A stretch of 64,000 bases of DNA from Hydrolagus colliei (taxonomy: Eukaryota). The stretch's first letter is position 1, and each line of letters opens with the position of its first letter. The notes under the pieces were generated by a model that saw only the letters and a program-made list of their open reading frames with translations, ran no database searches and had not been told where the DNA came from. The position numbers and the translations under genes are program-made. The stretch is taken from positions 19,096,001 to 19,160,000 of the forward strand of contig CM068749.1 in the NCBI GenBank assembly GCA_035084275.1. The letters run 5' to 3'. Shown piece after piece: positions 5,570-61,900 of this stretch.

Positions 5570-5879
5570 AAATAATAATGATAATAATCCTTCCATTCGA
5601 TATAGCGCTTTTCACGTCTTCTAGACTTCTCAAAGCGCTTCACAGAATATACCGTAAAGTGAACTGACTATATTTGTGGGCAAAATGCAGCAGCCAATTG
5701 CACAGCTGTATCCCACAAACAGTCGTGGATTGAAATGACCAATTTATTATTGTTTTTTTTTGGAGGAATCATTATTAGGCATGTGGATTAAGGAAACTTG
5801 CCTAAGGTTTCATCTTGCCTGGAAGTGAACCCAGGTCTCTCGCTTGGAAGGCGAGTATTCTAACCACTGAACTCTACAA
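5570..5879 (-). mobile_element. tRNA-derived SINE, near full length
   Basis: Same tail, body and tRNA-like head (gaacccaggtctctcgcttggaaggcgagtattctaaccactga). Confidence 0.9.
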
Positions 5880-6194
5880 TAAGTTTAAGAATCATTGAAA
5901 TCATTTTGTAACCTATTGTTTGATTCAGAACTGCAATACCCACTGCCTGCTTGGTTTAACACATCAATAAAAGACTGTTTTACTGGGGTGTCACAGCATT
6001 GAGCAAATGGGGGAGAAATCCAAAGTGATGACAAACATTTGTTCAGCAAGAAAGGGGAAAAGAGAGAGGATCCATTTTCATCCACTAAATGATATAGAAT
6101 TGTTCCTTTAAAAAGTACAACAAAGTTAAGATCCACGAGTAAAGGTTTTGTAATGATTTGCTTTGTGTATCGTGAGTTTTTCTCTTTGTTTCAG

Positions 6195-13735: not shown

Positions 13736-14077
13736 TTAATAATCAGCACCTTGTTCAGAATATTCACCACGGTAGTCTCCTTGGTAATACTCCTGGTATT
13801 CGACAGGATAATCGTCAGGATAGTCACCTTGGTAATCCCCATCACTATATTCTGATCCATTTGTTCCTTGGCTTCCATTGTGAATGACTAGATCAGTTGG
13901 GGTTGTACAATATTTGGAGTCATAAACCTGCCGCCCCAAGCCATAGACAGTCATACCTGTCTGAGAGGCTCCTTTGTTGGTGCCCATCTGTAGTGATATT
14001 GTGGAGGTGTCGCATTTCTCCGCTGACAATTTTTGGTCATAGATGTGTCTTCTGGTCCCTGGGGCTGTCATGCCAGC
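13736..14077 (-). CDS. CNN3: Calponin-3 exon 7 (calponin repeats and acidic tail, stop TAA)
   Basis: ccctatatccag|GCTGGCATG; [76 protein letters not shown]; the long acidic Tyr-rich tail is diagnostic of acidic calponin. Confidence 0.97.
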
Positions 14078-14965
14078 CTGGATATAGGGAAATAAAGGAA
14101 AGTTTATTCAAGTGAATTTAATTTTAACAGTTCTGAAAGAGTGCAGTTTTAAGCCACTAATAAGACTTGCTAATGGCATTTGGCAGAATCCTGGAATGCA
14201 ATGTGCATGCCAATTATAAAACTGCCATTGCCAAAATATCAGATTGTTTTTTGCACAGGAATAGAGTACCATCCAGTTAAGATTTCCTGACTATGTGGTT
14301 AGTGGTTTACATATCTGTTAGGCATCTGTGAAATACAACCTTGCTCCGCAAAGATCAAATATCAGAATTTAACTTAAAAACATTTGATTCTCTACAGAGA
14401 AACTACCTGTAATACCAATCAACACTGTAAAGAGACAAAAAACAAACACATACGCACGGCTAGTTATGAACATAAACTTAATACACCGTGCAAATCCCAG
14501 GCCAGCACAATTCTTTTGAAGAGCTCATATAAAACAGGTCACAACAGCAAAATTTGATCTATTGGGCGTAGATAATAAGCGTTGTTGCTAAACTACAGAA
14601 ATGCAGTGTGTAGGAGGTGAGTGTGTAGCTGACATTTCTATCCAACACTGCAAGTTGAACCCTGATCAAGGCAGGATTAGATACTGGATATCAGCAGAAT
14701 CAAACAACATTTGACAGATATTTTGTATGCACTAAAGAAAATGTTTCATGGAAAGATTGCAAAAAGGCAAGGTATATGCTGTAAGCTGGTGATCGGCCCA
14801 CACAAAGTACTGGAAGAAGTTTCAGCTAGTAAAATCCAACATAAAAAGATAAATGGAATGGTGACAGTGGTCAGACAGAGGGAAGTGGTACAAAGGAGAA
14901 TGAAGTCTTGTGGGTCAAATTGTAATGCAATACACACACATACATCTCCAAGTGGAGTTGCTTAC

Positions 14966-15112
14966 CTGACTGGCACCTTTATTTGTTCCCATTTGCAAAC
15001 TTATGGTAGTTTGATCTTTTGGTTTTTCGGTATGAGTCTTTGGATCATAAAGATGTCTCCTGGTCCCATAGGCAGTCATACCTGCTTGACTGGCACACTT
15101 ATTGGTCCCCAT
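14966..15112 (-). CDS. CNN3: Calponin-3 exon 6
   Basis: catttcag|ATG..CAG|gtaagc; [49 protein letters not shown], 147 nt. Confidence 0.97.
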
Positions 15113-15345
15113 CTGAAATGCACCAATCACATTGTGGTTCATTGGCAGATGTTATGTAAATGTTAAAAGTACAAAACTCTTGTATTTAGCTGACCTTGAA
15201 CTAGACCTTGAACATTCAGAGTTAATACCAAGGATTGTAATAGTTTGTGTATATATATATATGTGTATATATATATATATTACATATATATTTTAAAGAG
15301 CTCTTTGCTTGCTGTTTAGGAACTAAATAGCTGGTAATGACAGTA

Positions 15346-43329: not shown

Positions 43330-43560
43330 TCAGACGATTCTTCCAAGGTAAATCGATTTGGGATATTTCTCCTTTAAAGTAGACCACTGGACAAAAAAGT
43401 AATCCGACAAATAATACAGTATCTTCCCCGAGAGTGACAACGTTTCCACTCGGCAGATGCTCTCCACATATATAATTAGCACTTTCTTTATTCCGAATAC
43501 TCCAAGCATCAAAGCAGATAGACAGAGTGGCACACAGGTCCCTGGTCCATTGCACATCAC
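43330..43560 (-). CDS. ALG14: UDP-N-acetylglucosamine transferase subunit ALG14 exon 4 (stop TGA)
   Basis: ttctctgcag|GTG; VMCNGPGTCVPLCLSALMLGVFGIKKVLIIYVESICRVETLSLSGKILYYLSDYFFVQWSTLKEKYPKSIYLGRIV*, hallmark ALG14 C-terminus. Confidence 0.97.
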   Translation of the reverse strand: MMCNGPGTCVPLCLSALMLGVFGIKKVLIIYVESICRVETLSLSGKILYYLSDYFFVQWSTLKEKYPKSIYLGRIV

Positions 43561-43664
43561 CTGCAGAGAAACAAACAGGGTTATTTATACAGTTTGTAAA
43601 ATAATTTACATAGCTGAGATTTTAATGCAGCCTCCTGGAATTGTGTGTAAATTCATTGCCAAGC

Positions 43665-47736: not shown

Positions 47737-48051
47737 AATAATTATAATATTGATAATAATCCTTGCAATTGATATAGCGCTTTTCACATCTTCTAGACGT
47801 CTCAAAGCGCTTCAGAGTATACTGTAAAGTGAAATGACTTTAAAGTGAAAGGTGGGCGAAACGCGGCAGTCACTGCGCACAGCAGTGTCTTACCAACAGT
47901 CTTGGATTGAACTGACTAATTTTTTTTGAGGGACTATTATTAGGCACGTGGAGTAAACAAACTTCCCTAAGGTTACACCCTGCCTGGAATTGAACCCAGG
48001 TCTTGCTTGTAAGGCGAGTGCTCTAACCACTGAGCTACAGGAGCTTCACAA
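47737..48051 (-). mobile_element. tRNA-derived SINE, full length
   Basis: Minus strand head GCTCCTGTAGCTCAGTGGTTAGAGCACTCGCCTTACAAGC..CTGGGTTCAATTCCAGG; shared body and tail. Confidence 0.92.
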
Positions 48052-54660: not shown

Positions 54661-54971
54661 GATGATAATCCTTGCATTTAATAACGCGCTTTTCATGTCT
54701 TCTAGATGTCTCGAAGCGCTTCACAGACTATACAGTAAAGTGAATTGACTGTATGTTTGTGGGTGAAACGCAGCAGCCAATTGCACGCAGCAGTGTCCCA
54801 CAAACAGTAGTGGATTGAAGTGACCAATTTATTATTTTATTTTGTTGAGGGATTATTATCAGGCAGATGGAGTATAGAAACTTACTGAAGGTATTGCCCT
54901 GCCTGGAATCGAACCCAGGTCACTCATTTGCAGAGTGAATGCTCTAACCACTGAGCTGCAGGGCTCCACAA
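54661..54971 (-). mobile_element. tRNA-derived SINE, full length
   Basis: Complete tail, body and head; B box GGTTCGATTCC on minus strand. Confidence 0.92.
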
Positions 54972-55941
54972 CTTACCTACTTTAACGTGTGTGTGTGTGT
55001 GTGTGTATTGAAGCTGCTTACACAGGACTACAGATCTGCTGTGCATTTGCACTGTGATCACTGCACAATTCGCATAGTCAAATTATTGCTATCAGAAATC
55101 CAAGTAAATAGGCATTTTTGTTGTAGTTTTAAAGTTGTACAACAAGAATCACACTCAATCAATCTGAATCTCATGGCACTAACTGGTGCTCCTGCTTCCA
55201 TTATTGGGTTAAAGGAGCAGTAACAGCAGAAATGTTAATGTCCTAAGAAAATGTAGGTCAATTTTGAGAAAGAAAAATCACAGATCATTTTACTGTGCTA
55301 CCAAGGAATGTTATTCGACCTGGACTTTGCTATGTGCCTCTGCTCATCCCTTTTCTCAGTGGCTCACTAAGTATGTGGCGTTAATATAAATGTAAAATTC
55401 CATCAGGAGGGATACTGTAGGAGGAATAGATAACTCAGTAGTGATTACAAGGCAGTCATGTATTCAAGACAATCATAACTCACAAGACTATCAGTTGAGC
55501 AGGTTTTTTTAAACAAAAAATGAGACTTGTGACCTGGAAGCAATAACTGCAATCCCATAATTTAAACAATAAGAGCTTTCTGAACCTGTACAGTTAAGCA
55601 GCTGGTTCACACATGTACGACAATTTGAAAAAATATATATGCAGCGATGGAATCTGAAAACATTAACAAATCTTAAAAGAGTCACCCATGCAAAATGAAG
55701 GGTTGGGTTTTTTACAGTTCACATACTGTTGTGGTTTAATTCGAGTCAGCAGAATGCCAGAGCTTGTCATTACAGTCACAAGGGTAGAATTTATCAATGT
55801 ACGGTACATTGCCCCAACCGCTTAAGCCGGATTCTTAATCCAGAACGATTAAAGTTTACAACAAGGCAAATGAAAAAAGACTTAAAATATTCTCTCATAG
55901 AAACATAACTACAGCTTGGGCTGTTGCTTGGCTATACATAC

Positions 55942-56064
55942 CATGTCTGGTTTCAGTTGGAATACTAATGGGATGGAATAGAGGATTGAGTGCACAGTGG
56001 TGACCACTGAAGAAATCCAGGATTGTCTAACTTCACGACTGCGAGGTATCCGATGAATGGTGTA
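55942..56064 (-). CDS. ALG14: ALG14 exon 3
   Basis: gtcttacag|TAC..ATG|gtatgt; YTIHRIPRSREVRQSWISSVVTTVHSILYSIPLVFQLKPDM, 123 nt. Confidence 0.97.
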
Positions 56065-58769: not shown

Positions 58770-58921
58770 CTGAGGTTCAGTATCTTTTTTATTTTTAGCT
58801 GCTTCAACGATGTGGACTTTCTCTTCACTCATCTTGTCTGTATTAGCAATGACATAATGCCTTGGAGTATATGATGGGGAGAGGCTGCTCACCAGTCTCA
58901 GAATCTCTGTAGTATGACCCC
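58770..58921 (-). CDS. ALG14: ALG14 exon 2
   Basis: cttttttag|GG GGT CAT..CAG|gtaggt; (G)GHTTEILRLVSSLSPSYTPRHYVIANTDKMSEEKVHIVEAAKNKKDTEPQ, 152 nt. Confidence 0.97.
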
Positions 58922-58983: not shown

Positions 58984-59089
58984 GTTTCCCCCACAAATAT
59001 AGTCAATGCACTTTACAGTATATTCTGTGACGCGCTTTGAGACGTCTAGAAGACGTGAAAAGCACTATATCAAAATGCAAGCATTATTA
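58984..59089 (+). mobile_element. SINE 3' fragment in ALG14 intron 1
   Basis: cccacaaatatagtcaatgcactttacagtatattctgtgacgcgctttgagacgtctagaagacgtgaaaagcactatatc. Confidence 0.88.
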
Positions 59090-59504
59090 GTTTTGGGGTA
59101 CATATTCTAGGTAATAGTTGTACGAATGACTCTGGTGCATGAATGGTTAACAACCATCTCATTCAACATAGGAAGGAAGAGAATAGCATCTATGAAGTTT
59201 GAAGTCGTATTCATCTGTTTGAATACATGATCTTAAATACTCTTGATATATATTTTATTGCTGGCCAATTCAAAGAGTACTGGGTATTAGTTACCCTAAA
59301 CCTGTTGAAAACATAGATTCTATGCATGGAAGGGGGAAACAATGCAAAAATATACATACTGTATTATGTTTCTTTTAAACAAAGCAGAACCATTACGTAT
59401 AATATATTTAACCAAAGTGTAACTCACAATGCTCAGAGTGTAATACAGATTGTGATAGTTGTGTGTGTAATTAGAAGAAAGAACATATGAATGAATGAAA
59501 CCCA

Positions 59505-59601
59505 AATAAAAGTTGCTGAGGAAACTCAGCAGGTCAAACAGCATCCACGGAGAAAGGAAAAAGAGTCAACGTTTCGGGTCTACAACCCTTCGTCAGGACT
59601 G
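59505..59601 (-). mobile_element. Short Penelope-like element terminal-repeat fragment carrying the hammerhead
   Basis: gctgaggaaactcagcaggtcaaacagcatccacggag..gagtcaacgtttcgggtc..cccttcgtcaggac resembles a common chondrichthyan dispersed repeat as I recall it; minimal hammerheads are a known feature of PLE termini. Confidence 0.65.
59564..59600 (-). ncRNA. Minimal type I hammerhead ribozyme motif
   Basis: Minus strand reads AGUC-CUGACGA-A-GGGU(UGUAG)ACCC-GAAA-CGUU-GACU: stem I AGUC/GACU, core CUGANGA, stem II GGGU/ACCC, GAAA, palindromic ACGU stem III, GUU cleavage triplet. Confidence 0.8.
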
Positions 59602-59784
59602 GGGCTTGTTTGGAAGGAGAGTCCCCAGTCTATCTCTGGGATTTCCATGTGTAGGTGAGATGCACTGCAATCTGTTTGGCTTGGATACTCTTAAGCAGGG
59701 CAATGGGTGTCCGCATATGTCAGGCTCCCAGTTGAAATATCTCAACACACGCACACATACATACATATATATATATATATATAA

Positions 59785-59978
59785 AATAATATAATAATCC
59801 TTGCATTTGATTTAGCGCTTTCCACATCTTATCGACGTCCCAAAGCGCTTCACAGGATATACTGTAAAGTGAATTGACCGTATATATTTGTGTCGCGGAA
59901 TCGCGGCAGCCAATTGCGCACAGCGGCGTCCCCCACAAACAGTCGTGGATCGAAACGGCCAATTTTATTATTTTTTTG
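59785..59978 (-). mobile_element. SINE 3' half, CpG-retaining copy in ALG14 intron 1
   Basis: ataatccttgcatttgatttagcgc..cgcggcagccaattgcgcacagcggcgtcccccacaaacagtcgtggatcgaaacggccaatt. Confidence 0.9.
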
Positions 59979-60240: not shown

Positions 60241-60636
60241 CACTCCCCCCCCTCACCCCCCCCCCACACACTCCCCCTCCCCCCCTCACCCCCCCCACAC
60301 ACACTCCCCCTCACCCCCACCACACACACTCCCCCTCCCCCCCTCACCCCCCCACACACACTCCCCCTCCCCCCCTCACCCCCCCACACACACTCCCCCT
60401 CCCCCCCTCACCCCCCCACACACACTCCCCCTCCCCCCCTCACCCTCCCCCTCACCCCCCCACACACACTCCCCCTCCCCCTCCCCCCCCCACACACACT
60501 CCCCCTCCCCCCCTCACCCCCCTCACCCCCCCACACACACTCCCCCTCCCCCCCTCCCCCTCCCCCTCCCCCCCCCACACACACTCCCCTCACCCCCCCC
60601 CCCCCCTCCCCCCTCCCTCCCTAACCCCCCCCCCCC
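60241..60636. repeat. C-rich minisatellite (about 31-nt unit cacacactccccctcccccctcaccccccc) at the 5' end of ALG14 intron 1
   Basis: About 10 imperfect units; G-rich on the ALG14 sense strand. Confidence 0.92.
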
Positions 60637-60647
60637 GGGTCACTAAC

Positions 60648-60810
60648 CGGAGCCCAGCACCACCAGCAGCGGCACCGGGAGCCGCTCGGCCTCTCTGTGC
60701 CTCTTGTTGTTCCTCAGGGTCACAAGCAGCCGGAGGGTCAGACAGGCGGCGGCGGGGAGCAGCCACAGCCACAGCCACCCCCCCCACCCACAACACCAGG
60801 CCCAGGCCAT
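60648..60810 (-). CDS. ALG14: ALG14 first coding exon (hydrophobic N-terminus)
   Basis: Strong Kozak gccggccATGG; MAWAWCCGWGGWLWLWLLPAAACLTLRLLVTLRNNKRHREAERLPVPLLVVLGS(G)|gttagt; phase-1 junction restores the GSGGHT motif. Four exons total 669 nt = 222 aa + stop. Not in ORF track. Confidence 0.9.
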
Positions 60811-60868: not shown

Positions 60869-61445
60869 ACTCCCCCCCCCCCCTCCACACTCACCCCGCT
60901 CTCTCCTCACTTCCCTCTCCTCCTCCTCCCCCTCCTCTCTCCCCCCGCTCCTCTCCTCTCCCCCTCTCTCCCCCTCCTCTGCTCCCTCTCTCCCCCCGCT
61001 CCTCTCTCCCCCTCCCCCCGCTCTCTCCTCACTTCCCTCTCCTCCTCCTCTGCTCCCTCTCTCCCCCCGCTCCTCTCCTCTCCCCCTCCTCTGCTCCCTC
61101 TCCCCCCCCGCTCCTCTCTCCCTCTCTCCCCCCGCTCCTCTCCTCCCTCTCTCCCCCCGCTCCTCTCCTCTCTCCCCCTGCTCTCCTCTCTCCCCGCTCC
61201 TTCCCTCTCCCCCCGCTCCTCTCCTCTCTCCCCCTGCTCTCCTCTCTCCCCCCTCCTCTTCTCTTCTCTCCCTTCCTCCCTCTCCTACTCTGTCCTCCCC
61301 CCCTCCCCTGCTCTCCCCACTTTGCTCTCCCCCCCCCCCTCTCTCCCCCCCCCCTCTCTCCCCCCCCCCTTCTCTCCCCCCTCCCCCCCCCCCTCTCTCC
61401 CCCCCCCTTTCCTCTCCCCTTGCTCTACCCTCCTCTCTCCCCCTC
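60869..61445. repeat. Polypyrimidine/polypurine tandem tract (ctctctccccccgctcctctc units)
   Basis: Almost purely C/T for about 575 bp, bounded by the 11-bp direct repeat cccggctctac. Confidence 0.92.
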
Positions 61446-61524
61446 CCCGGCTCTACCCAATCCGGCTCTAGGCGGCGCCATCAGTCTGGAGCAACTCGAA
61501 ACAGCAACATAAAGGTCACCAGGG
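61446..61524. promoter_or_regulatory. Candidate ALG14 core promoter island between tandem arrays
   Basis: Only non-repetitive stretch in about 1 kb; CCAAT at 61457-61461, YY1-like GCGCCATC, AAAGGTCA at 61511-61518, several CpGs. Confidence 0.5.
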
Positions 61525-61900
61525 GGAGACAGACTGGGGGGGGGGGGAGAGACAGACTGGGGGGGGGGGGGAGAGAGACAGACTGGGGGGGGGGGAGAGA
61601 GACAGACTGGGGGGGGAGGGGGGGTGGGGAGAGAGACAGACTGGGGGGGGGGGTGGGGAGAGAGACAGACTGGGGGGGGGAGAGAGACAGACTGGGGGGG
61701 GAGGGGGGGTGGGGAGAGAGACAGACTGGGGGGGGGGGAGAGAGACAGACTGGGGGGGGGGAGAGACACGGTGAGGATGAGCGGAGTGAGGGGAGACAGT
61801 GTGAGAGTGAGCGGGGTGGGGGGAGACAGTGTGAGAGTGAGCGGGGTGAGGGGAGACAGTGTAAGAGTGAGCGGGGTGGGGGGAGAGACAGTGTGAGAGA
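61525..61900. repeat. G-rich tandem arrays: (gagagacagactG9-14)n then about 30-nt gagcggggtg..gagacagtgtgagagt units
   Basis: Nine gacagact+G-run units to about 61765, then four copies of the second unit. Confidence 0.92.

Follow-up and report, generated by a model that had tools for sequence, protein, structure and literature searches.

The ALG14 locus

The window analysed here is a 64,000-nucleotide stretch of the Hydrolagus colliei genome that contains the gene ALG14 on its minus strand. Exon 2 of ALG14 (58770-58921) matches the Pfam family Alg14 (PF08660) with an E-value of 6.6e-9 and is flanked by AG and GT, and exons 3 (55933-56064) and 4 (43336-43569), the bounds of which are approximate, match the same family. 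All three PF08660 matches in the genome fall inside the window, and ALG14 is single-copy. The putative coding exon 1 (60648-60810) has no Pfam match on its own, and was assigned on the basis of an ATG start codon, a hydrophobic stretch, an open frame, a phase-1 GT donor at 60647 and a GT..AG pair. With exon 1 so placed, intron 1 spans 60647-58922 (approximately 1.7 kb), and the hammerhead motif described below lies approximately 640 nt before its acceptor. Intron and exon are evenly covered by one sequencing run, the coverage of which is DNA-like; no joint removing just the ALG14 insertion was seen in that run, a result that does not prove fixation.

ALG14 exon 1 lies between long low-complexity tracts rich in purines or pyrimidines (60290-60640 and 60870-61900); they are prone to G-quadruplex formation and their assembly is possibly less accurate. 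An abundant tRNA-headed repeat, probably a SINE, is found at 5810-5881, 47976-48044 and 54894-54965 (-), with Rfam tRNA matches at 35-39 bits, and in numerous shorter fragments, among them 59785-59976 and 58984-59089; two of the pieces are in ALG14 intron 1. Downstream of ALG14, minus-strand exons at approximately 13739-15151 encode calponin-like repeats and an acidic tail, and we take them to be those of CNN3.

Hammerhead motif in ALG14 intron 1

The minus strand at 59600-59564 has the sequence of a minimal type I hammerhead ribozyme, with its letters as given in the original prediction, and it is in the sense orientation with respect to ALG14, as was also predicted, the gene being on the minus strand as well. 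The motif consists of the 5′ strand of stem I (59600-59597), core nucleotides C3-A9 with a C at position N7 (59596-59590), an extra A between positions 9 and 10.1 (59589), stem II (59588-59585 paired with 59579-59576, including the G10.1-C11.1 pair formed by G59588 and C59576), nucleotides G12-A15.1 (59575-59572), a 4-nt palindrome at positions 15.2-16.2 that replaces stem III (59572-59569), a U at position H17 (59568) and the 3′ strand of stem I (59567-59564). The cut site predicted between 59568 and 59567 is correct under hammerhead numbering; hammerheads with U at position 17 cut slower than those with C. Both stems had been described as 4 bp long, which is true of stem I, but the predicted fold of stem II has 5 bp, the last of them a U-G pair next to a loop of 3 nt.

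The core (CUGANGA...GAAA..UH), the single base between positions 9 and 10.1, the G10.1-C11.1 pair, the palindrome in the absence of helix III and the 4-bp helix I are the features of the minimal hammerheads that were described in metazoan Penelope-like elements (PLEs) by Cervera and De la Pena (2014, PMC4209133). The Schistosoma families in that description have a helix II of 7-8 bp whereas that of H. colliei has 4-5 bp, which is no difference of kind. According to the same report, these hammerheads are inactive as monomers and have low activity as dimers.

No second copy of the motif with 12 or fewer mismatches is present on either strand of the window, where the original prediction had seen no second intact copy, none with 11 or fewer mismatches is present in the next 20 kb, and no cis partner was found within the ALG14 pre-mRNA span. 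Searches of Rfam at both gathering and E-value thresholds yielded no match of a hammerhead model to the motif. The CUGANGA box alone occurs in the window at chance level (30 seen, 32 expected), and the z-score of the fold is -0.7.

The parent Penelope-like element

The motif is part of a 126-bp fragment (59496-59621, minus strand) that was identified by BLAST to long copies as the 5′-truncated 3′ end of a PLE, of the short (tail-less) class, with 21 nt preceding the motif and 68 nt following it. When a 241-nt query was searched against the genome and 40 of the 3,132 candidates were scored, the matches were approximately 125 nt long, and over this length the ALG14 fragment is 94-96% identical to the best-scoring copies. 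No convincing target-site duplication was found at the ALG14 insertion, the best candidate being 6 nt long and far from the junctions.

Stepwise upstream walking from motif copies led to four PLE copies of approximately 2.3 kb, two of which have inverted 3′-end pieces at the 5′ junction and none of which has an unbroken open reading frame. Pfam matches to RVT_1 (E 4.4e-6) or GIY-YIG (E 3.7e-4) were obtained in five of the nine frames scanned, and the domain scores, from broken frames, are just below the curated cut-offs (27.0 vs 29.6, 21.2 vs 22.6). The translations contain PLE-type reverse transcriptase motifs and a CX4CX2C linker preceding the endonuclease, and the linker is present in long copy P0001. 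The motif is located approximately 300 nt past the GIY-YIG stop codon in the long copies, which places it in the PLE's terminal repeat region. The finding of a parent element with reverse transcriptase, linker and GIY-YIG endonuclease bears out the original attribution of the motif to the minimal, dimer-type type I hammerheads of PLEs.

The succession from a reverse transcriptase to a C-terminal GIY-YIG domain with a CX2-5CxxC linker, the heavy 5′ truncation, the inverted 5′-truncated partner, the optional 30-40-bp tail and the hammerhead near the 3′ end are shared with endonuclease-containing (EN+) PLEs of the Neptune clade as described by Craig et al. (2021, PMC8557442). The family may be tentatively assigned to Neptune by the zinc linker motif only, a linker that Nematis has as well. 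A direct partial-tandem pseudo-LTR, as in the Neptune elements of that description, was not seen in the four long copies examined. Heavy truncation, inverted partners and optional tails were all seen in the H. colliei family, and inverted partners and optional tails have been described for PLEs (PMC8557442; PMC11167929). Pieces of the element are on both strands at 40 of 104 loci, an inverted partner is within 4 kb of 29 of 53 exact motif copies, and a second motif piece on the same strand is approximately 2-2.6 kb away at three of 53 loci. There are two classes of 3′ end: of 149 pieces, 64 end at +60-79 and 75 at +90-109, and two such classes are also reported for the Poseidon element PAc of the anole (Frangieh et al. 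2024, PMC11167929); the open reading frame of PAc starts at stem II, whereas the H. colliei motif follows the GIY-YIG stop codon.

Abundance, variation and decay of the motif

The exact 37-mer is present in 93 copies genome-wide (47 forward, 46 reverse), compared to none of the reversed control, and the core plus palindrome, with stems not required, has 2,287 matches compared to one for its control. Metazoan PLEs were likewise reported to have left solitary motifs by the thousand, scattered with truncated elements, as well as opposite-strand pairs, and the vertebrate genomes in that report also contain thousands of dispersed minimal copies (PMC4209133). The density of 2.3 motifs per Mb corresponds to a 14% chance of finding one in any 64-kb window and to an expectation of 0.02 motifs in sense orientation within one 17.5-kb gene; hundreds of genes probably hold such a motif, though any single gene is unlikely to. 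Two of the loci (L045 and L046, on C2 near 129.13 and 129.46 Mb) are alike over all 3 kb compared and are either a segmental duplication or an assembly duplicate, so not every one of the 93 exact copies arose by a separate insertion.

In a second subfamily, which has the same core and stems, loop II differs and stem II ends in a C-G instead of a U-G pair. Variation in the stems of the family is one-sided only, with no two-sided change in stem I or stem II among 10 copies. Position 2.1, opposite G1.1, is either C or U (16 and 37 copies), so that pairing is kept, and the free position N7 has mutated from C to T in 13 of 53 copies, compared to 2-6 transitions at each of the other five CpG positions. 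Because of the pairing kept at position 2.1 and the excess of N7 transitions over those at other CpG positions, we infer that selection kept the motif in source elements and not in their copies.

Decay among the copies was assessed at 58 loci picked with upstream queries that excluded the motif, 54 of which were used, as four are without the 3′ end. An initial comparison of core to flanks suggested a conserved core (P 0.001), but it was set aside because subfamily-diagnostic sites and bases of higher mutability had entered into the flank rates. In the corrected test, from which four subfamily-diagnostic sites were dropped and in which rates were matched by base, the non-CpG core sites have six substitutions vs 9.9 expected (P 0.14), the stems 20 vs 20.2 and the loop and free sites eight vs 8.5. 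The core deficit leans towards conservation in what is a small test. The essential nucleotides G8 and G12 are altered in seven and four of 53 copies, respectively, and genome-wide the essential U16.1 is lost in 40 of 2,082 copies compared to 35 of 2,117 for the tolerant H17 (P 0.56, breaks being included in both counts). Thus the core conservation that the original prediction had named as a sign of function is not clearly above background. The motif is structurally intact in 21 of the 54 copies, and since core and stems decay approximately at the background rate, an intact copy such as that of ALG14 is ordinary.

Traces of cleavage and 5′ ends of the copies

If a cleaved 3′ product had served as a template, copies should start at G1.1, at the cut site. 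Among 2,117 copies genome-wide there is no pile-up of starts at this site: 35 lack the T that precedes G1.1, and among 30 of these that were examined, 17 proved to be breaks, approximately 1% of the 2,117. With so few copies starting at the cut site, cleaved RNA left no genomic trace. Similarly, in the report on anole PAc, unprocessed RNA is the main insertion template, the PLE hammerhead does not cleave without PLE protein and RNA-seq ends are absent from the cut site (PMC11167929); in both species, insertion appears to use RNA that has not been cleaved as its template.

The orientation of copies within genes was approximated by the skew of T over A, a crude proxy for the gene strand used in place of gene annotation. 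On four tiles of the two minus-strand genes of the window, the skew ranges from +0.006 to +0.053. It is +0.011 for single-orientation loci (36 of 60 sense-like, P 0.21) and +0.013 ± 0.011 for the 8-kb flanks of exact copies (15 of 24 sense-like, after exclusion of 29 of 53 copies for inverted partners). The strand bias of intronic copies that had been proposed as a check on function was not detected by this weak test; strong depletion of sense copies is not seen, and a moderate bias is compatible with the crude proxy.

The 5′ ends of PLE copies do cluster, the place being the 5′ strand of stem I (equivalent to 59603-59596 of the window) and not the cut site. The four bases before the core are kept in 579 of 968 core-bearing copies, compared to approximately 90% expected from the substitution rates of long copies, and 47 of the 80 exact copies examined start within 3 nt of the first base of the motif. 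In 10 of the 20 copies whose start coincides with this first base, the preceding base is G. Many of the clustered copies are head-to-head inverted pairs. The ALG14 copy reaches 21 nt beyond the cluster. An origin of the cluster in spliced RNA was rejected because no upstream exon is common to the copies that break within stem I, most of which have an inverted partner at that place. The site fits an initiator-like consensus, and the short copies are likely to be run-off cDNAs ending at the start of the element transcript; the Penelope element of D. virilis is reported to have an internal promoter with an initiator (PMC2377424). Alternatively, reverse transcriptase may stop at stem I.

Predicted folding of the ALG14 copy

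At the 5′ junction of the fragment, an 8-nt sequence (59623-59630, minus strand) is an inverted match to 59604-59597; it is likely to be a remnant of the inverted 5′ piece that is common in this PLE family. The two are predicted to form a hairpin of -13.8 kcal/mol that hides the 5′ strand of stem I. The pairing probability of the upstream match is predicted to be 0.78-0.99 when at least 60 nt of upstream sequence are included and 0.99 in co-transcriptional snapshots, and the probability of stem I is predicted to be 0.00-0.02 with at least 21 nt of upstream sequence. If 40 nt are included on either side, the probability of this pairing drops to 0.04 and another misfold dominates, with stem I still absent. 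Similar inverted matches of at least 8 nt within 60 nt upstream are found at seven of 53 exact copies. The folding model discriminates poorly, however, as the predicted probability of stem I is low in most other exact copies too (median 0.03; above 0.5 in eight of 38).

In the bare monomer, G5-G8 are predicted to pair with the palindrome and the cut site (-10.8 kcal/mol, compared to -7.5 kcal/mol when only stems I and II form), a misfold of the common motif that could possibly be a built-in off state. The predicted energy of even half a dimer is unfavourable, at +6.2 kcal/mol bare and +7.7 to +20.8 kcal/mol in context, values of a nearest-neighbour model that is crude for the hammerhead core and gives relative hints only. 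The predicted hairpin would leave the 3′ strand of stem I free, as would suit a trans partner.

Interpretation of the ALG14 motif

The motif is the hammerhead of a PLE 3′ end, carried into ALG14 intron 1 by a 126-bp truncated insertion, and is very probably an inactive passenger, spliced out uncut. Cutting would need two RNAs to swap strands, with both stem I and the palindrome formed between molecules. With the 5′ strand of stem I predicted to be sequestered by the upstream hairpin, the ALG14 RNA could be at most a substrate, which would be bound through 8 intermolecular bp for as long as a short-lived first intron of 1.7 kb lasts.

It is unlikely, but the best of the alternatives, that a small share of ALG14 pre-mRNA is cut incidentally with the aid of RNA from an expressed element (in the germ line, for example) or of PLE protein, as a side effect common to many genes rather than a selected control. 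The core of the ALG14 copy is intact and the motif is identical to 92 others, so that partners with matching stems exist; the predicted upstream hairpin would free the substrate strand; the anole PLE hammerhead is reported to cut once PLE protein is added (PMC11167929); and an engineered fast hammerhead placed in an intron lowered the mRNA of a zebrafish gene by up to 20-fold (PMC11856399). However, the same zebrafish report describes most natural ribozymes as unsuitable in vivo owing to slow kinetics, and finds that intronic placement lowers cleavage. The unfavourable half-dimer energies and the monomer fold that occupies G5-G8, the palindrome and the cut site also argue against incidental cleavage, as do the lack of an unbroken open reading frame in the four long copies examined and the lack of a tail on the ALG14 copy.

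A broader version of this idea, decidedly improbable, is that PLE hammerheads on the sense strand of introns are latent substrates, and that derepressed element RNA or protein would cut host pre-mRNAs including that of ALG14 co-transcriptionally. Intact sense-intron hammerheads of this kind probably number in the hundreds in the genome, and in the case of ALG14 the modelled upstream hairpin would open the substrate strand in advance. In Xenopus, there are many monomers and approximately 43% of copies are intronic, according to a preprint on non-LTR retrozymes (Li et al. 2026, 10.64898/2026.07.22.740005). The retrozymes have type I hammerheads of likely PLE origin, as does ALG14, but they are tandem arrays, whereas the ALG14 copy is a solitary truncated end, the only one in 64 kb plus 20 kb.

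Less probable still is the domestication of this copy as a regulator, kept because trans-dimer cleavage tunes ALG14, and with it N-glycosylation, to the level of repeat RNA. The sense orientation, the first-intron location and the unmutated 37-mer fit such a role, and hammerheads of likely retroelement origin are conserved in introns of amniotes (PMC7761336); the dimer dependence of minimal hammerheads and the conserved intronic ribozymes have been reviewed (PMC6765202, PMC7761336). Like the amniote hammerheads and the HDV-like ribozyme of CPEB3, the ALG14 motif belongs to a self-cleaving class and lies on the sense strand of an intron, but the amniote ribozymes are described as few and highly conserved (PMC7761336), whereas the ALG14 motif is one of a large repeat family and has no stable helix III. 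Instead of few copies with a fold competent as a monomer, there are 93 exact copies, no helix III and a predicted stem I probability near zero. Unmutated motifs are frequent (intact in 21 of 54 copies), nothing in the skew proxy points to selection on sense copies in either direction, and the local context is predicted to disfavour the fold. A literature search for ALG14, intron and ribozyme found no such paper. The repeat-dependent control of ALG14 that the original prediction had put forward is thus disfavoured, the motif being one copy of thousands, without clear core conservation or strand bias by proxy, and with a stem I predicted to be disrupted; the kind of motif is already known and host regulation of ALG14 is unsupported. 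A chance resemblance to a hammerhead, to which the lack of an Rfam score, the weak fold z-score and the chance frequency of the CUGANGA box might have pointed, has next to no probability and is refuted by the copy counts (93 and 2,287 vs control counts of 0 and 1), the position of the motif at the expected place in a PLE and family variation that keeps the pairing of position 2.1 with G1.1 and falls on the free N7.

As it stands, the ALG14 motif is one more dispersed PLE hammerhead, and an ordinary one. If cleavage of host introns in trans or with protein assistance were true, retrotransposon activity would be tied directly to the decay of host pre-mRNA, and the in vivo role of PLE hammerheads would be explained. 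The pattern of 5′ ends across the family is a more useful by-product than the ALG14 motif itself, as it suggests a start site for the RNA of the element and, in vivo, the use of uncleaved RNA as template.
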